NCBI GenBank assembly: GCA_963677485.1
Contig: OY781964.1
Span: 704,001-768,000 of the forward strand
DNA: 64,000 nt
Reading direction: 5' to 3'
Source: Armatimonadota bacterium
GTDB taxonomy: Bacteria > Armatimonadota > HRBIN16
In this document: piece by piece, positions 2,586-19,149 of the stretch
Position numbering within the stretch: position 1 is the first letter of the stretch
Layout of the letters: every line of letters starts with the position of its first letter
Translations under genes and position numbers: made by a program
The notes under the pieces: generated by a model
What the model was told of the DNA's origin: nothing
Database searches by the model: none
What the model saw: only the letters and a program-made list of their open reading frames with translations

Positions 2586-4580
2586 CTATCGCAGCTGACG
2601 CACCAGCTCAGGTAAATTCTGCCCTTCCACCACGCGGTCGCCCGAGCCTAGCTGCAACTTCACGACCTTCAGATTTTTGTCCTTGCCCGTATAAAGCGTG
2701 CGCATCCAAAGCAATCGGCCTTCCACCACCATCGGCCGGATTTCACCTTTTCGTAGCGTGCCGGAGCTCCGATTAGCCATCTGCGTGAACAGCTTCACGC
2801 TCATCTGCGGTGTCTTGAACACACTGCGCCACAGATGATACCCATCCGAAGCGAGATAGCCGGCGATTTGCGGGTTCTTTGCCGATACCTCGTAGGGCAA
2901 TACCTGCATCCAGTGACCGTCGCACAAAGTCCACCAAGGTTCCATCTGCTTCAAAGAAGGAAGTGGCACAGTGCGCACAGGCACCGTCACTGGCTGCTCG
3001 CTCTCAGGTCGGTCGACCACCGGCAGTTTCAGATCCAGGGCATATGCCTGGATGGCCATATAGTCAGAGCCAATTGACGGACCATCACCCTCCGTAAACA
3101 TCTTAGGAAAGACATTCCGGTAGGTTTGTAACAGCGGATTCGTTTTGTCTGTGATCATAAAGCTGATCTGACCACTGGTGGCATCAAGCCGGATATCCAC
3201 ACCAGGTTTTACACTTCGGAACCTATAGAACATGCCTGATGGCAGGTTGATAATGATCTGCTTGCTACCGGGCATATTTTCCGTGCCTGCGTACGCCAGC
3301 CGCTGCCAGTGAACTCTGTCGCCCTCGCGTACCAGTTGCACCGTGCGGTCATACATCAAGAATGGGGCCACGGCCCGCATACGGTCATATACGCTTCGTC
3401 GGAGCAATATGTGCGCATCCGACGGGATATCGCGTTTTAGAAGGCGCCGTTCCCCAACACGAAGACTCACCAGCCATCGCCGCAGTCCCGATTTCAGTTC
3501 GAAGCCTGCATTGGGATCGGTCAGTTTCGAGCTATATATCACGCCACGGTAATAGCCCGTTGCTCCCCGTAAGACCATCTGCTTTCGGTCGATGCTGTGG
3601 GCCAGCACAGGTTCCACACTGTTTTCCGAATACCAGACGGGCTGCACGTTGACATTCGTAACCCGTGGCTCTACCTGGTTGGCCTGAAACAGGCTAAGCT
3701 GGGTGCTATAGCCCAAAGGCATCACTGGCCCCTGCTTTGTCGGCAGGATGCTGGAAGGATCTGGGGCCGCAGGTTCGAGCAGACATAGCCACGTACCAGG
3801 CTCAGAGGGGCTCTGAGAGCCTCCCATGTAGCGGTTGCGCATTCTATCTGCATATGACGCATTCAGACGCTCCAAGACCATGTCACGGTCCCACAATAGC
3901 ATCTGATCGGACTGACATCCCGTTGCCTTCAGTTGGCCACCGACTGGCTGCACATCCAGTATATTGTTAAGCCCATAGGACAACGCGGTGTCTTTACTAT
4001 TGTCAGCGAGATTGGGCCAGCCATGCCCGTTCCCCACCGCCAACAACAATATGGCAGCCAGAGCGGTCAGCCCCATGCGCCACCTGCGTGGCACCGACAC
4101 CGCGCCAGATGGGTCTGCTGAGACCACCAGCGCCTGCACCATCCAGCAACCCGAAACCAGCCAGAACAGCCAGATCATCACCTGCTGGATAAATGGCAGC
4201 ATGAACACATCAAAGCTGGCGTCGACGCCAAAGGCTCCGATGTAGCCCAGGTTGGCCCGATGCGTGGCCAGCATCATGTTCTCCCAGAGGTTCGCAGCAC
4301 CGCCAGCAAAACATATGACGACTAATGCCACAAACACTTTAGGCATAAACTGCGGCCGTTTTCGGAAAAACATCCAGGGTAAAATCAGCGCAACGACCCC
4401 ACCCCAAAACGCTGCCACTAAGCGTGACTGAGTCACGGTGATATATGACGCCTCTTGGCCTAATTCCTTGAACCAACAATACTCCGTATACCCGCGCACC
4501 GAAAGAGAGACGAGAAACCCAAGGACGATCAGCGAGGTCGCCGACCAGCCCGCGACCCGAAGCCATTTCGCAACAGTCAT
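2586..4580 (-). CDS. UPF0182 (COG1615)-like membrane protein, divergent and shortened
   Basis: EYCWFKELGQ, FGVDASFDVFMLPF, RMRAVAPFLMYD, RLDATSGQISF and PLLQTYRNVFP resemble UPF0182 motifs; N-terminal TM helices. Confidence 0.7.
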   Translation of the reverse strand: MTVAKWLRVAGWSATSLIVLGFLVSLSVRGYTEYCWFKELGQEASYITVTQSRLVAAFWGGVVALILPWMFFRKRPQFMPKVFVALVVICFAGGAANLWENMMLATHRANLGYIGAFGVDASFDVFMLPFIQQVMIWLFWLVSGCWMVQALVVSADPSGAVSVPRRWRMGLTALAAILLLAVGNGHGWPNLADNSKDTALSYGLNNILDVQPVGGQLKATGCQSDQMLLWDRDMVLERLNASYADRMRNRYMGGSQSPSEPGTWLCLLEPAAPDPSSILPTKQGPVMPLGYSTQLSLFQANQVEPRVTNVNVQPVWYSENSVEPVLAHSIDRKQMVLRGATGYYRGVIYSSKLTDPNAGFELKSGLRRWLVSLRVGERRLLKRDIPSDAHILLRRSVYDRMRAVAPFLMYDRTVQLVREGDRVHWQRLAYAGTENMPGSKQIIINLPSGMFYRFRSVKPGVDIRLDATSGQISFMITDKTNPLLQTYRNVFPKMFTEGDGPSIGSDYMAIQAYALDLKLPVVDRPESEQPVTVPVRTVPLPSLKQMEPWWTLCDGHWMQVLPYEVSAKNPQIAGYLASDGYHLWRSVFKTPQMSVKLFTQMANRSSGTLRKGEIRPMVVEGRLLWMRTLYTGKDKNLKVVKLQLGSGDRVVEGQNLPELVRQLR

Positions 4581-4688
4581 ATGTAAACGTCACCTTGTGA
4601 TCAGACATTGTAATGAAACTAATACATTGTACCGTGTATAGGGTATTTGTTTGACTGAGGTATGAAGAGTACCGCATAATGTTACAGA

Positions 4689-5192
4689 ATGGACAGAGAA
4701 CACCATCAGCCCGATAGTTTCCCTCTGGTGTGGTGGGACGGAGCACTAGTCTCCTTCCGCACAGCAGAGAATGTGGATTCGTGGCCCGAAGCCGCTGAAG
4801 CCACGCTGCTTTTCGGTGTTTTCGAGAACCGGTTGCTGTTAGTTGATGTCAACCAGCGCGGCTGGAGTATTCCTGGCGGGCATATCGAGCTAGGCGAAAC
4901 GGTCGAACAGGCACTCATTCGCGAGGTCAAAGAAGAAGCAGGGGCTGCTGTGCAAAACCTGCAGCCGTTTGGCATCTATGAATTCCGTAAGGACGAACAG
5001 TCACCAGTTCATGCAGTGGTCACCACATATACCGGCCATGTCACTCATTTTGAGCCCATCTCGCTGGATATGGAATCACTGGGCATCATGCTGGTTCCCT
5101 TGGAGCAAGTCCAACGATTTTACTATACTTGGAACCCGCTGTTTGAAGCGGTGTTCAAGGCACTCATAAATCACGCAGCCTTATCGACGTAG
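4689..5192 (+). CDS. NUDIX hydrolase
   Basis: Nudix box GGHIELGETVEQALIREVKEEAG. Confidence 0.9.
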   Translation: MDREHHQPDSFPLVWWDGALVSFRTAENVDSWPEAAEATLLFGVFENRLLLVDVNQRGWSIPGGHIELGETVEQALIREVKEEAGAAVQNLQPFGIYEFRKDEQSPVHAVVTTYTGHVTHFEPISLDMESLGIMLVPLEQVQRFYYTWNPLFEAVFKALINHAALST

Positions 5193-5208: not shown

Positions 5209-6399
5209 ATGTACATTTCGCAGCGAGCTAAGAACACATTACCGTCACCCACCCTTGCTATCACCGCTCTGGCAAAAAGCATGAAGGAACAAGGGATAGA
5301 TGTGATCTCCTTTGGAGCTGGTGAGCCCGACTTTAATACCCCCGACGTGATAAACAAAGCGGCCATTGAGGCCATAGAATCTGGTTTTACGCGTTACACA
5401 CCTACCGCTGGCATCGAACCGCTGCGGCAGGCCATTGCAGACAAGCTGCTGCGGGACAACGGCCTGAGCTACAAGGCGACCGAGGTGATGGTCACTTGTG
5501 GTGCTAAACATGCGCTTTTCGGGATATTCCAGGCGATCTGCGATCCAGGCGATGAAGTGATCATCCCCGCACCATATTGGGTCAGCTATCCTGAGCAGGT
5601 CAAGCTGGCGGGTGGTGTACCCGTGTATGTGACCGCCGATTCGGCGGCGAACTTCATTCCCGATCCAGCTCAAATCGCTGCCGCGGTGACTCCCAAAACA
5701 CGAGCCATCGTCATCAACAGCCCGAACAACCCCTCTGGTGCCGTCTTCCCCGAAGCGGTCATCCGGGCAATCGCCGAAATCGCACTCAAACACGGTATTT
5801 ACTTGATTTCAGATGAAATTTACGAAAAGATGGTCTACGGCACGGAGCATTTCTCAGTGGCCAGCATCAGCGATGAGGTGAAGAAGCTCACCATCGTTGT
5901 GAATGGCATGTCCAAAGCGCACGCCATGACTGGCTGGCGCATTGGCTACGCTGCAGCAGAGCTTGAGCTGATCAAAGCGATGGTGCGGATGCAGGACCAA
6001 TCGACCTCTAACACCACTTCCATCGCTCAGAAGGCAGCAGTCGCCGCACTCAAAGCACCTGAAGGCCTTGTGACTGAGATGGTTGCCGCTTTCAATGAGC
6101 GGCGCGCGGTGATCGTGCAGCTACTGAACGACATCCCAGGGTTCAACTGCCCGAACCCGGGCGGCGCCTTCTATGCCTTCCCAGACGTGTCCGGTGTTTA
6201 TGGAAAGAGCTTCAATGGGAAGCAGATTAACAGCTCGGACGACTTCGCGGCATATCTTCTGAACGAAGCGCGGGTCGCCGTTGTTCCTGGCCGCGGGTTT
6301 GGACTTGATAGCAATATACGCCTAAGCTACGCCTGCTCGATGGACAGCATTAGGCAGGGGATCGCCCGCATTGCTGAAGCGGTATCAAAGCTCAGTTGA
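5209..6399 (+). CDS. aspC: PLP-dependent class I aminotransferase (aspartate aminotransferase-like)
   Basis: GEPDF, NSPNNPSG, SDEIY, SKAHAMTGWRIGY (PLP lysine). Confidence 0.9.
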   Translation: MYISQRAKNTLPSPTLAITALAKSMKEQGIDVISFGAGEPDFNTPDVINKAAIEAIESGFTRYTPTAGIEPLRQAIADKLLRDNGLSYKATEVMVTCGAKHALFGIFQAICDPGDEVIIPAPYWVSYPEQVKLAGGVPVYVTADSAANFIPDPAQIAAAVTPKTRAIVINSPNNPSGAVFPEAVIRAIAEIALKHGIYLISDEIYEKMVYGTEHFSVASISDEVKKLTIVVNGMSKAHAMTGWRIGYAAAELELIKAMVRMQDQSTSNTTSIAQKAAVAALKAPEGLVTEMVAAFNERRAVIVQLLNDIPGFNCPNPGGAFYAFPDVSGVYGKSFNGKQINSSDDFAAYLLNEARVAVVPGRGFGLDSNIRLSYACSMDSIRQGIARIAEAVSKLS

Positions 6400-8393
6400 T
6401 AAGTGAACCACAGATACACATCGCATTAAACCTGCCTGAGGAGTGTGAAACACTTCTCAGGCAGGCCCTGACACATAAACACGACGACGTCACTGAGTTA
6501 GAATGCAACGAACGGCTGGAATTTCTGGGAGACGCGGTACTCGGCCTTATTGTGACCGAAGAGTTCTTCCGAAACCACCCCAAAGCGCGTGAGGGCCTGC
6601 TCAGCCGCGCCAGAGCGGCGGTGGTCAGCCGTCCCAGTTTGGCCGATTCGGCACGCAAGATAGGCTTGCACAACCTCATTTTGACCAGCAGTATGGAACG
6701 GAAACACGGCATCACACAGGGGCAGCGTGTGCTGGCCGATGCTATGGAAGCGGTGATTGCCGCGGTGTATATGTCGTTGGGATATGACACCACCAAGGCC
6801 TTCATACTACAGCACTTTGGTGATATTATGGACCACGCCCTGGAAAGCGCAGTGTCGCTTGACCACAAAACCGCATTGCAGGAATACGCGCATCTCAAAC
6901 TTTCAGTCACACCGACCTACGAACTGCTGACCGCGTTCGGCCCAGATCACAGCCGGAATTTCACTTTTCAGGCTTGTGTAGGTGATATCCCCTTAAGCAT
7001 CGGCACCGGAAACAGCAAAAAGTCCGCACAGCAAGACGCGGCTCAAAGCTCGCTGGTGATGCTTAAACGGATGGTGTCCGCACAGAAAACAGGTGTCGTC
7101 TCAGTTCAACCGGAAACTATACAGTTCAGGCCCGATTATGAGAACACCGCAGACTATATGAACATCGCCACGATGTTTAACCTTCCTCAACCTGTCACCA
7201 TCTCAGAGTTGGACTGCAAGGGCAATATCAACACGGAGAGTTTTCTCGTCGTTGCCGCAGATACGCGGTATATCATGCAAAAAGTGAACCCAGGGGTCTT
7301 CCCTCTGCCACACCGCGTGATGAGAAATCTTCTATCTGTCTGCCATCATCATGCACAGCAGCCTGGGAATATGCCCAAAAACTGGAAATGCCTGCAGCTT
7401 CAACCCACCAAACAAGGCGCTCCCTATCTCCAAATCATGCATGCAGACAGCAGTAGTGTCTGGCGTATGATGCATTTCATCGAGGGCACGTGCAGCTTCA
7501 AGCAGCTATCTGATGTGGGTGATGCTCAGCGAACGCTAAAGATCGCTACAGAGGCCGGTAAGGGTCTGGCGACATTTGTGCAGCTCACTCAAGGACTGCC
7601 TTTAGACCACTTTTATGCTAGTTTCCCGGGCTACCGAAACACACAGCTCTATATTGACCAACTAGAGGCCGTGTGGGATGGATGCCTAACGGTAGAAGAC
7701 GCCCAAAAGCATCTTCCTGAGGAACCATATCTACGCACTGCGGTATGGCCGCAGTATGTTCTGCACTGCGATACAGAGCAGTATAACTGCCGCAAAGCCG
7801 CCACAGAGGTGGTCGAGCTGCGCGACTACCTCCTTGAGAACCGTCATGTGGTGATGAAACTCTGGGACGAAGTGCAGTCAGGCAACCTCAAGACGAGTAT
7901 CATCCACGGGGATCCGAAACTTGAGAACTTCTTGTTTGACAAACAAACTGACCAAGTAGTTTCCATGATTGACCTGGACACACTCATGCCTTATACCTGG
8001 CTGGCCGACTGGGGCGATATGGCGAGATCGCTTGTCAACCCCATGGGCGAAAAGACGACGGATATAGATTCGGTCTATCTCGACGTCAGTGTCTTCAAAG
8101 CCTTGATGCAAGGGTATGTGGCATCAGCTCATACAATCCCCCCTTATGAACTAGAACTCATGACGCTCGCTCCGGCCGTCATTGCGATGGAGCTTGGGAT
8201 GCGCTTCCTTACCGACTATATCAGGGGAGACAACTACTTCGGACTGACAGAACAAGACATTGAACAAGGCGTGACCAACCTCAGCCGAGCCCGGGTACAA
8301 CTGCGCTTGGCTCAGTTGGTTCTTGAAGCACAAGATGAACTTCAAGATGCTCTTCACCAATTTCTAGATATGACAACGATCGCTGAGGAGTAA
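6396..8393 (+). CDS. rnc: Ribonuclease III (catalytic domain + dsRBD) fused to an APH/N-acetylhexosamine-1-kinase-like phosphotransferase
   Basis: NERLEFLGDAVLG, ADAMEAVIAAVY and dsRBD (DHKTALQEY...GPDH...GNSKKSAQQDAA), followed in frame by GNINTESFLV, HGDPKLENFLF, IDLDTLMP, ELGMRFLTDY. Confidence 0.85.
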   Translation: MISEPQIHIALNLPEECETLLRQALTHKHDDVTELECNERLEFLGDAVLGLIVTEEFFRNHPKAREGLLSRARAAVVSRPSLADSARKIGLHNLILTSSMERKHGITQGQRVLADAMEAVIAAVYMSLGYDTTKAFILQHFGDIMDHALESAVSLDHKTALQEYAHLKLSVTPTYELLTAFGPDHSRNFTFQACVGDIPLSIGTGNSKKSAQQDAAQSSLVMLKRMVSAQKTGVVSVQPETIQFRPDYENTADYMNIATMFNLPQPVTISELDCKGNINTESFLVVAADTRYIMQKVNPGVFPLPHRVMRNLLSVCHHHAQQPGNMPKNWKCLQLQPTKQGAPYLQIMHADSSSVWRMMHFIEGTCSFKQLSDVGDAQRTLKIATEAGKGLATFVQLTQGLPLDHFYASFPGYRNTQLYIDQLEAVWDGCLTVEDAQKHLPEEPYLRTAVWPQYVLHCDTEQYNCRKAATEVVELRDYLLENRHVVMKLWDEVQSGNLKTSIIHGDPKLENFLFDKQTDQVVSMIDLDTLMPYTWLADWGDMARSLVNPMGEKTTDIDSVYLDVSVFKALMQGYVASAHTIPPYELELMTLAPAVIAMELGMRFLTDYIRGDNYFGLTEQDIEQGVTNLSRARVQLRLAQLVLEAQDELQDALHQFLDMTTIAEE

Positions 8394-8397
8394 TCCT

Positions 8398-10359
8398 GTG
8401 ATGAAGCCCAACGAAGCATTACCCAAGCGGGGGCCGCTGCGAGCCATACTCATCGCAGTGCTACTACTACCGCCCAACGCATTGTGGCTTGTTCAGACCG
8501 AGATGCTTAACCGCGCCAGTAACACTCCTGGCAGCTCTGGTGGGCCATACCCCTCCACCTTTTCGCTATTTGCCAATGTCATATGTATCATTGCGGCTTT
8601 GTTGATCGTGAATGTGGTCATCAAACGCCTGAAACCCAGTGCTGTCCTGAACCCGTCTGAGCTTTTAATCATCTACTGCATGTTATCCATCGGTACCGCA
8701 ATGACCTCAGTGGATGGATTTCATATTCTAGTGCCGATGATCGGCCACCTGCAGCGGTATGCCAACAACGTGAACCAGTGGGCGAACACGGTAATCCCGT
8801 TGGTGCCCAAGTTCATGCTGGTGAGCGATCCGACCGCTTTGACCGGATGGTATACCGGATCTGGGAACCCTTTTGCCATCAGAAATATGCTGGCCTGGTG
8901 GAAACCAATGGTCTGGTGGGGCAGTTTTTCATTCATACTGCTGTGGGTGATGCTCTGTCTTAACGTGCTCATTCGCAAGCAATGGACTCAAAACGAGCGG
9001 CTAAGCTATCCTACCATCATGCTGCCCCTCGAAATGACCGAGAACACCAGTTTTTTCTTCCGAAACAAACTCATGTGGGCAGGATTCTTTATCGCAGCGG
9101 GTATTAGCTTTGTCAATGGCATCAGCTATTTTATGCCCAACGTGCCCACGGTGCCAGTCAAAGCATTGAACCTGGGGCTATATATCACCTCCGCTCCCTG
9201 GAATGCGATGGGTATCAACGGCTTCATGGCCAGTTTCTACCCCTTCGCCATCGGGCTTAGCTTCCTGCTGCCTGCGGATCTGTTGTTTTCGTGCTGGTTC
9301 TTCTATTTGATTAATAAGCTGGAGCTGGTCATCAGCTCGCAAATGGGATATCTGGGGATCAACCCCCAGTTCCCATACATCGCCCACCAAAGCCTGGGTG
9401 GATACTTGGCCGTGGGTGTGCTTGCCATCATGGGTGCGAGAATGCACCTGAAGAGCGTGTTCATCGCCGCCTGGCGTGGCGAAAATGAGCCCGACAGCGG
9501 CTGGTTGGGCTACCGGATCGCCTCCATCGGAGCACTCGTCGGATTAGTAATGCTGTGCCTCTATTTCAACTATATGGGCTTGCCTTTCGTCTACTGCGTG
9601 GTCGCTTTCCTGCTCTATTTCCTCATAGGCATCGCCATCACCCGTATGCGCGCTGAGCTTGGTCCACCTGCCCATGACCTGCACTACGCCGGTCCCGACA
9701 CACTCTTTATCTCAACCCTCGGCGCGGGGCACTTCACTACAAAACAGTTGACTGCGCTCAGTTGGTTTTACTGGTTCAACCGCGCTTACCGCAGCCTGGC
9801 CATGCCGCACCAACTTGAGGCTATGAAAATAGCCGAAAGACGCAAAATGAAGCAAAGCCCAATGCTCACGGCGTTGGTCGTTGCCGCCTTAGTGGGTGTC
9901 GCCTCAGGTCTGTTTGCCGAATACTGGTATGGATACACCAAGTCAGCCGAAGTGGGCATGGCTGCCTACTATACAGGATTTGGGAAAGAGGCGTTTGATT
10001 TCCGTCTGCAGAACTGGATCACCGCCTCACCAAAAGCAGAGGTCGGCTCTACAATCGCCGTCGTCGTCGGTTTCTTCATCACTCTGCTGCTGGGCTCCGT
10101 TCGTCTGGTGGCCCCCTGGTGGCCGCTGCACCCATTGGGCTTTGCCATCAGCGGAGGGTATTCAGTGGGGATGATCTGGCTTCCGATGATGATCGCCTGG
10201 ACATGCAAAGTGACCATCCTCAAATTCGGCGGTTTGAAACTATACAAACAAGCCGTCTACTTCTTCCTGGGTCTAGTGCTGGGCGACTACATCATGGGAA
10301 TGGCATGGCCGCTCTTTGGCTGGATCACCAAGATGGCGACCTACAGCTTCCAGCAGTAA
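8398..10359 (+). CDS. Multi-pass membrane protein (DUF6785/DUF6784-like, putative transporter)
   Basis: Many TM helices; RKQWTQNERLSYP, RMRAELGPP, PWWPLHPLG, KFGGLKLY, FFLGLVLGD motifs. Confidence 0.7.
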   Translation: MMKPNEALPKRGPLRAILIAVLLLPPNALWLVQTEMLNRASNTPGSSGGPYPSTFSLFANVICIIAALLIVNVVIKRLKPSAVLNPSELLIIYCMLSIGTAMTSVDGFHILVPMIGHLQRYANNVNQWANTVIPLVPKFMLVSDPTALTGWYTGSGNPFAIRNMLAWWKPMVWWGSFSFILLWVMLCLNVLIRKQWTQNERLSYPTIMLPLEMTENTSFFFRNKLMWAGFFIAAGISFVNGISYFMPNVPTVPVKALNLGLYITSAPWNAMGINGFMASFYPFAIGLSFLLPADLLFSCWFFYLINKLELVISSQMGYLGINPQFPYIAHQSLGGYLAVGVLAIMGARMHLKSVFIAAWRGENEPDSGWLGYRIASIGALVGLVMLCLYFNYMGLPFVYCVVAFLLYFLIGIAITRMRAELGPPAHDLHYAGPDTLFISTLGAGHFTTKQLTALSWFYWFNRAYRSLAMPHQLEAMKIAERRKMKQSPMLTALVVAALVGVASGLFAEYWYGYTKSAEVGMAAYYTGFGKEAFDFRLQNWITASPKAEVGSTIAVVVGFFITLLLGSVRLVAPWWPLHPLGFAISGGYSVGMIWLPMMIAWTCKVTILKFGGLKLYKQAVYFFLGLVLGDYIMGMAWPLFGWITKMATYSFQQ

Positions 10360-10451: not shown

Positions 10452-11582
10452 CTACTTGGTGGATGCCTCCACTGGCACGGCGGTAGTGATGTCCAGTTTA
10501 GCCAGCTTGGCATCAAACTGCGCTTTCACACCCGGCAGGCTGTTCAGTGCCTGCCACGGCAGATACAGCACACCCTTGCGGTTGAGCACCTTGGCATCCA
10601 GTGCCAGCTGCTTGCCGTCTAAGCTGAACGCTTTAGCGTTGGCCTTGGCGGCGAGGGCGTGGCCCTTGGCTAGGGCCCGGACAGTAGTTAAAGCGATGTA
10701 GGCCTGATTCTTCACCACTACTAGCGGGAAGCCGAGTTTTGCATCCTTCCCGTTTTGCAATACGCTGACAGCCGGCCATTTGGTGGCTGCTTTGGTCGTC
10801 TTTTTCCCTAGATGGCGATCATTACTCGCGAAAATCAGCAACCTTGCATCAACAACATCGCCTGTTGTCGCACTCACATTTACACAAACGATTGGCAATC
10901 CCATCTTGTCTTCAGGGCTACATGTATCCCTATTACTAAGGTAGAAGTTAAAAGGATATGCAATGTATGGATCACCATTCATTTCGGTACATATCACCGC
11001 AGTTTTAAGCATGGAATCATCATCAAAAACATATGGCCATGTATATCTTTCATTATTGACCATGTAAACCCAGTTGCTTGCGACTCTATGCGCAATACGA
11101 TATGCATCTTCGATATTTACCTTATTTGGAGGTAGAGGCTTGTCTGTCGATTGTGATTGAGCCGTAAAACCAATCGCCGAGGTTCCTGCATATGCAATAT
11201 CAATTGCAACACGTGAATCGAGTAATCCTTCGTCATGTTCGAGGAGATACATACCACGATAGTATTTAACCATCCTATCCCTAGGAATATCTGGTCGTAG
11301 GTTCCACACCAAATCGTCGTTATAAGTCTCGATTAGTGGCCACATACCGTTTTCAGGTAAACCTTGACTGTTGTAAGTCAATGTAAAGTTTTGTTTATCG
11401 AATAGCACAAGGTATTTGGATGAACCTTTGACGTCAACAGAAGGAATGATCTTGGGACTTTCATTTTGGCAAATTTGGGGCAACTGCTGTTGCACCACAT
11501 TCATGATTCGTTCGATATCGTCGGCATGACAGGCGATAGTCAGAATGACTATTGCCCATATTACAGTAATGACACGTTTCAT
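10452..11582 (-). CDS. Secreted protein with a PepSY-like motif and a conserved C-terminal stalk (copper-amine-oxidase-N-like) domain
   Basis: Signal peptide; VNIEDAYRIA...VNVSATTGDV; C-terminal LDGK...YLPWQAL..LPGVK shared with three genes at 22360-25951. Confidence 0.7.
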   Translation of the reverse strand: MKRVITVIWAIVILTIACHADDIERIMNVVQQQLPQICQNESPKIIPSVDVKGSSKYLVLFDKQNFTLTYNSQGLPENGMWPLIETYNDDLVWNLRPDIPRDRMVKYYRGMYLLEHDEGLLDSRVAIDIAYAGTSAIGFTAQSQSTDKPLPPNKVNIEDAYRIAHRVASNWVYMVNNERYTWPYVFDDDSMLKTAVICTEMNGDPYIAYPFNFYLSNRDTCSPEDKMGLPIVCVNVSATTGDVVDARLLIFASNDRHLGKKTTKAATKWPAVSVLQNGKDAKLGFPLVVVKNQAYIALTTVRALAKGHALAAKANAKAFSLDGKQLALDAKVLNRKGVLYLPWQALNSLPGVKAQFDAKLAKLDITTAVPVEASTK

Positions 11583-19072: not shown

Positions 19073-19149
19073 GGCGGAGTAGCTCAGTTGGTCAGAGCAT
19101 ACGGTTCATACCCGTAGGGTCGACGGTTCAAATCCGCCCTCCGCTACCA
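19073..19149 (+). tRNA. tRNA-Met (CAU), elongator type
   Basis: GGCGGAG acceptor stem, TACGG-TTCATAC-CCGTA anticodon arm, GGTTCAAATCC T-arm, encoded CCA; lacks the initiator C1:A72 mismatch. Confidence 0.93.

Follow-up and report, generated by a model that had tools for sequence, protein, structure and literature searches.

An RNase III fused in frame to a NahK-like kinase in one genus of Armatimonadota

Within a stretch of 64,000 nucleotides (nt) from an Armatimonadota bacterium (contig OY781964.1, positions 704,001 to 768,000; hereafter the window, numbered from its first letter), a single open reading frame (ORF) on the forward strand (6396..8393) encodes a protein of 665 amino acids (aa) in which an RNase III is followed, with no internal stop, by a NahK-like kinase. 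The fusion is real and not an assembly error, and in each of three genomes of the genus it is the sole RNase III. It is probably a genus-restricted fusion of neighbouring genes that yields a bifunctional protein, the two halves of which would act independently. One half, the RNase III, would cleave double-stranded RNA (dsRNA) as the usual homodimer in ribosomal and messenger RNA processing, the kinase half would use ATP to phosphorylate a hexose or N-acetylhexosamine at C1, and the fusion itself would give merely fixed co-expression from an operon of the order NUDIX-aminotransferase-rnc::kinase-DUF6785.

The reality of the fusion is evident from its conservation. In a search of 41 related genomes, full-length, stop-free matches occur in all three that belong to the genus (g1), namely the genome of the window (G000), G001 (89% identity) and G002 (68%), and a fourth fused version, P0002 (76-77% identity), comes from a separate metagenomic assembly. 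The four versions span 68-100% identity and separate assemblies, yet all keep a single frame, and a split form with separate rnc and kinase genes was found in none of them. The initial annotation of this ORF, made from the sequence alone, had left room for a fusion confined to one assembly; three genomes and one metagenomic cluster speak against that. Between G000 and G001, where synonymous divergence (dS) is 0.57-2.1, the ratio of nonsynonymous to synonymous divergence (dN/dS) is 0.020 for the RNase III catalytic domain, 0.021 for the dsRNA-binding domain (dsRBD), 0.039 for the kinase and 0.106 for the linker (residues 226-255), and both domains are thus under strong purifying selection.

The start codon of the ORF is a TTG in a 4-nt overlap with the TGA stop at the end of the aminotransferase gene upstream; this start is supported by the presence of ATG at the aligned position in the relatives P0002 and P0003. 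Three Pfam families match the 665 residues, all above their cut-offs: Ribonucleas_3_3 (residues 18-140, 103 bits), dsrm (PF00035, residues 158-220, 49.2 bits) and APH (PF01636, residues 276-548, 43.8 bits). The layout is therefore one of RNase III and dsRBD in residues 1-225, a linker of about 25 aa (residues 226-250; 7071..7145, on the forward strand like all parts of the ORF) and the kinase (residues 251-665; 7146..8390). The linker is the least conserved stretch among the four versions and the one with the lowest model confidence, and it is predicted to be flexible.

That the first 225 or so residues make up a complete RNase III had been proposed from the motifs and the dsRBD, and Pfam and NCBIfam agree. 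The catalytic domain (6447..6815) contains NERLEFLGD (residues 38-46; 6507-6533) and DAME (residues 115-118); E42, D46, E66 and E118, which are invariant across 48 aligned RNase IIIs, are all present, and inspection of the sequence shows E39, E101 and D115 as well. These acidic residues presumably have their counterparts in Escherichia coli numbering. Against the NCBIfam model TIGR02191 this half scores 197.2 bits (equivalog cut-off 166.25), and 200.2 bits in the genome search. Residues 10-224 align with the RNase III of Mycobacterium tuberculosis (2a11) at E 1e-37, the best match among solved bacterial RNase IIIs, with the dsRBD (6867..7055) aligned through the end of 2a11. As in the class-1 Rnc enzymes (2a11, 1o0w of Thermotoga, 7r97, 1yyk of Aquifex), one catalytic domain with NERLEFLGD and the acidic residues is followed by one dsRBD, but whereas a typical Rnc is a stand-alone protein of 220-250 aa, the fusion carries a complete kinase of 430 aa at its C-terminus. 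Judged by sequence, the RNase III half is complete and looks active. A check for a second, stand-alone rnc gave a clear answer, as TIGR02191 has exactly one match in each of G000, G001 and G002, which is the fused gene, while G004, G006 and G008 each have one stand-alone match.

For the C-terminal 430 residues the only sequence matches in the Protein Data Bank (PDB) are to the N-acetylhexosamine 1-kinase NahK (three distinct NahK sequences, about 1e-31). An AlphaFold2 model of the kinase, built on 55 relatives, has a predicted local distance difference test score (pLDDT) of 93.8 and a predicted template modelling score (pTM) of 0.92. When this model was compared with solved structures by Foldseek, the top six matches were all NahK, with template modelling (TM) scores on the target of 0.87-0.94; the best, 4wh3, has E 2.8e-23, a TM score of 0.94 on the target, a root-mean-square deviation of 2.0 Å and 25% identity, and the next fold family, that of homoserine kinase 2ppq, follows at E 3e-10. 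The initial annotation had already recognised a NahK-like kinase with an intact HGDPKLEN catalytic loop (residues 504-511; 7905-7928) and IDLD metal motif (residues 525-528; 7968-7979), and this identification holds on the strength of the APH match, the NahK sequence and fold matches and the invariant residues. The fusion keeps all 21 invariant columns of 55 aligned kinases, including H504, D506, K508, N511, D526 and D528, which are invariant also in an alignment of 41 kinases, and its loop and metal motif align with HNDTKLNN and IDLD of NahK. Since all 21 columns are kept, the kinase half appears complete and active and, by these criteria, would not be a pseudokinase. A protein-kinase (Pkinase) domain was not found in the fusion by Pfam, which matched solely the RNase III, dsrm and APH families.

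NahK of Bifidobacterium longum (4wh1-3, 4ocj) shares with the fusion kinase the APH fold, the H-x-D-x-K-x-x-N loop, the DLD metal motif and conserved C-terminal helices (LELG.RF..DY..GD.YF). The differences go beyond the low identity: compared with NahK-sized relatives, the fusion kinase, like its closest family, has some 38 aa inserted between its lobes, it has an RNase III partner, and its locus lacks a galacto-N-biose/lacto-N-biose (GNB/LNB) gene cluster, the neighbours being NUDIX, aminotransferase and DUF6785 genes. NahK itself is described, in a review (PMC8106489), as working in a GNB/LNB-type sugar utilisation cluster together with a phosphorylase, GalT, GalE and an ABC transporter.

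Within its family the kinase is mostly a stand-alone protein of 405-445 aa that is annotated merely as 'phosphotransferase' or as hypothetical, the named homologues being the 'phosphotransferase' of Fimbriimonadaceae, Fimbriimonadales or Armatimonadetes bacterium. The stand-alone long-form phosphotransferases (410-445 aa) are 36-43% identical to the fusion over the full length of the kinase, with the 38-aa insertion and the N-terminal leader included; they differ in being unfused (TIR-fused in the sister genus g3), and the fused clade lies on its own long branch outside them. Matches to the kinase half at E <= 1e-20 were obtained in 73 of 401 genomes of the phylum, among them both further g1 genomes (plus G000) and both genomes of g3, with none in the 13 genomes of genus g2. 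Among 20 surveyed kinase loci of 15 kb, the filtered ORF set contained a kinase in 17; the remaining three, L062, L065 and L068, were excluded from the distance counts and from the tree. No gene is conserved beside the kinase across families in the loci surveyed, with the exception of family f26, where two tandem PGM/PMM-type phosphohexomutase genes lie directly 3' of the stand-alone kinase (L066:4254-7004, with a 12-nt overlap, and L067:8258-11090, with a 28-nt gap); the same mutases are present inside the fetched 15 kb in L055 and L062. An anomeric kinase, producing a sugar 1-phosphate, beside mutases that interconvert 1- and 6-phosphates makes a coherent pathway. On account of the NahK fold and these PGM/PMM neighbours, a hexose or N-acetylhexosamine 1-kinase is the best guess for the function of the kinase half.

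The closest kinase homologue in the sister genus g3 (40% identity) is a protein of 549 aa in which a TIR_2 domain (PF13676, 42 bits, residues 10-128) stands N-terminal to the kinase (clusters P0095 and P0096; L005:1090-2739 in G004, and also L006 in G006). Its gene lies between a metallo-beta-lactamase-fold gene and a Ppx/GppA gene, and PADLOC gives marginal TIR-type matches only (E 0.002-0.004). With RNase III-kinase in g1 and TIR-kinase in g3, the same kinase family has been fused to two N-terminal domains within one bacterial family.

Searches of genomes, proteins and cluster representatives recovered no RNase III-kinase fusion outside genus g1. When the whole protein was compared with 5.8 billion proteins, 91 matches were obtained among 8000 scored candidates, and the three clusters that combine RNase III with APH all belong to the same genus-level group. 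The RNase III half gave 212 matches to longer proteins (413-2000 aa), and among the 120 listed only the same three carry APH. In a HMMER search of 1.84 billion cluster representatives, P0003 alone covers both halves among the best 150 of 23,862 matches, a rank below which weaker independent RNase III-APH fusions would fall. The domain-architecture search that the initial annotation had recommended (RNase III, dsrm and APH) places the architecture, among the matches listed, in this genus-level group only. P0116, which matched in two stretches, was rejected as a kinase fusion; it is a tandem RNase III of 480 aa.

The view that bacterial RNase III is normally stand-alone is mostly true, but the databases contain fusions to PHP, SfsA, URO-D, an SGL-type domain, an FAD oxidoreductase and Fpg, as well as tandem RNase IIIs. 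Like the protein described here, these enzyme fusions, undescribed and met with in databases only, join a complete bacterial RNase III and dsRBD to an unrelated enzyme in one ORF; they differ in partner and in lineage, and none has a kinase. RNase III-dsRBD-PHP proteins of about 520 aa account for the majority of the listed Desulfobacterales proteins (P0006-P0049, P0371-P0445), including those of named Desulfatibacillum and Desulfobacula genomes, and the RNase III-FAD oxidoreductase P0223 has 676 aa. Only the kinase partner is new, RNase III enzyme fusions as such being already in the databases; among the literature titles and abstracts found, none describes a bacterial RNase III-kinase fusion. 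The PADLOC defence models gave no family at E <= 0.01 for the fusion.

The surroundings of rnc in the sister genus bear on the origin of the fusion. In g3 (G004) an aminotransferase gene is followed by a stand-alone rnc and then by convergent M16 peptidase genes, and the aminotransferase is a conserved upstream neighbour of rnc in both g1 and g3. As the window aminotransferase is 69% identical to its G004 orthologue and both precede rnc, the order aminotransferase-rnc is the ancestral arrangement. The RNase III of g1 groups with the RNase IIIs of family f1 (support 89 in the Shimodaira-Hasegawa-like approximate likelihood ratio test, SH-aLRT), which fits vertical descent. In g1, rnc is now followed by the kinase and the DUF6785 gene, and the C-terminal half of the linker aligns with the N-terminal leader of the stand-alone kinases, so that two entire genes, rnc and the kinase gene, appear to have been joined end to end with loss of the stop and the spacer. 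A kinase tree of 36 rows unites the four fused sequences in a single clade (99) that lies outside all stand-alone long-form kinases and does not group with the g3 kinase. As to the order of events, we infer that rnc would have kept its ancestral place behind the aminotransferase gene, gained a whole NahK-family kinase gene at its 3' end and lost its stop codon.

That RNase III has been fused to several unrelated enzymes elsewhere fits an opportunistic fusion with a downstream neighbour. The independence of the two halves is favoured by the variable, low-confidence linker and by the kinase loci, where about 7 kb around the kinase are free of rnc in each of the 17 others that gave a kinase ORF. 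Several observations point the other way. All four versions remain fused, with no split form, despite a deep divergence (68% identity, saturated dS), and the linker itself is constrained, with a dN/dS of 0.11; long persistence and a constrained linker would also be expected from selection for the fused state, and hence from some functional link. The stem of the fused kinases is long (1.23 changes per site) and a changed function is possible, an argument weakened by RNase III stems of 1.29 in g1 and 1.19 in g3; on this comparison, the idea that the kinase evolved faster once fused was rejected as an argument. The PGM/PMM context is confined to the one family f26, and no recognised sugar-pathway gene was found at the fusion locus.

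Such a functional link could be regulatory, with the kinase domain controlling the sole RNase III in cis, either through a ligand-driven (ATP or sugar) open-close motion or by phosphorylating the RNase III half. We consider this unlikely, although it accounts for the long retention of the fusion, the constraint on the linker and the lack of split forms in the four versions, and the fused kinases do form a distinct clade on a long stem. A large open-close change of NahK is reported in the same review (PMC8106489), and the proposal is that such a change would affect dimerisation or access to dsRNA. Against this stand the separation of rnc and kinase in the 17 other kinase loci, the predicted flexibility of the linker and the identity of the closest structural relatives, which are small-molecule kinases and not protein kinases; acceleration is no argument here, the RNase III stem being of equal length. 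Structure prediction is neutral on the point: for a complex of the RNase III half with the kinase half, the scores of 0.00 and 0.00, with a mark of 0.32, count neither way, and in the full-length AlphaFold2 model (four fused sequences plus 37 kinases; pTM 0.68) the RNase III half has a pLDDT below 50 and is covered by only four rows, so that the domain packing is uninformative. The suggestion in the initial annotation that dsRNA processing is coupled to sugar or ATP sensing, or to phosphorylation, thus received no computed support, nor did the gene neighbourhoods lend it any; the analysis yielded no evidence in favour of regulatory coupling as such, nor anything that would decide against it.

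The idea of coupling draws its analogy from other systems in which a kinase-like module and an RNase form one regulatory unit. Phosphorylation by the T7 kinase (gp0.7) stimulates E. coli RNase III, and IRE1 and RNase L are eukaryotic kinase-RNase fusions. The RNases of the latter two are of the KEN/HEPN type and their kinases are protein kinases, whereas the present fusion combines an RNase III with a homologue of small-molecule kinases. A more specific form, in which the NahK-like domain would be a cis sensor that gates the sole RNase III through ATP or sugar binding or turnover, or through autophosphorylation, and so alters the activity of the dimer, must be rated as quite improbable.

It is similarly doubtful that the one ORF gives rise to two proteins, the kinase being made by internal initiation or released by proteolysis of the linker. 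A flexible and variable linker would suit this arrangement, and a Met is found at residue 226 in three of the four fused versions; however, no start codon, Met or other, is conserved in all four across residues 226-260, and neither a Shine-Dalgarno-like run nor, in a consensus scan, a notable sigma-70-like site precedes the kinase part, in keeping with the original description of an ORF without a stop or an obvious internal ribosome-binding site. Were separate products favoured, one would expect a stop to reappear, and there is none in the four versions.

There is very little likelihood that the kinase half acts on a nucleic acid or nucleotide linked to RNase III products instead of on a free sugar. 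The physical link to an RNase might suggest such a substrate, as might the nearest kinase in the sister genus, which is fused to TIR, since TIR domains act on NAD. However, fold and sequence are by far closest to the anomeric sugar kinase NahK, the PGM/PMM neighbours in f26 point to hexose phosphates, and the fusion has no PADLOC defence match.

An artefact of assembly or sequencing, with a missed stop or an indel at the junction, can be set aside because independent species keep the frame, with purifying selection over the junction and to either side of it, and not because of the reads: the contigs of four runs, the read support that had been called for, are identical to the window sequence (three public runs from two studies span 6200-8600 with no differences and no gaps, and a fourth spans 6427-8600), but these runs may be the assembly's own source and by themselves offer weak support.

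In the window the fused gene is the third of four genes on the same strand, which probably form one operon. A NUDIX hydrolase gene (4689..5192; PF00293, 57 bits) comes first, followed by the class I/II aminotransferase gene (5209..6399), the fusion and a gene for a polytopic membrane protein with DUF6785 and DUF6784 (8398..10359), with intervals of 16, -4 and 4 nt. The final codons of the fusion contain a GAGGAG, ahead of the DUF6785 gene, and no terminator-like site was found on the forward strand inside the four-gene run. The best sigma-70-like site, TTGACT-18-CATAAT (4651..4680, forward strand; 10 of 12 positions by consensus match), lies immediately ahead of the NUDIX gene and may be the promoter of the operon. 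The DUF6785 neighbour is present also in G002.

The DUF6785+DUF6784 family is strongly expanded in these bacteria, with 10 matches in G000 (the window gene and nine further) and 6-28 in every one of the 33 genomes, of 41 related ones, where the family occurs; there is none in 14 well-known control genomes, and PADLOC has no match for the DUF6785 protein. Divergent from the operon lies a gene for a membrane protein of 664 aa (2586-4580, reverse strand) with a partial match to UPF0182 (116 bits), and convergent with the DUF6785 gene is an ORF of 376 aa (10452-11582, reverse strand) that has an N-terminal hydrophobic stretch and no Pfam match at E <= 0.01. The sole Rfam match at the gathering threshold in the 64-kb window is a tRNA (19073-19146, forward strand).

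How bacteria regulate RNase III, a conserved housekeeping enzyme, is poorly understood, and in this genus the sole copy has been permanently tethered, through deep divergence, to an intact small-molecule kinase. The fusion is thereby a natural construct for asking whether a metabolite-sensing domain can control RNase III. If the kinase did act as a gating sensor, global dsRNA processing and the maturation of ribosomal RNA would track carbohydrate supply, and the protein would stand beside the kinase-gated IRE1 and RNase L as a bacterial counterpart built on RNase III. If instead the halves are independent, it would be one more opportunistic fusion of rnc with a neighbouring gene. The fusion also flags an uncharacterised subfamily of NahK-related kinases in the Armatimonadota.

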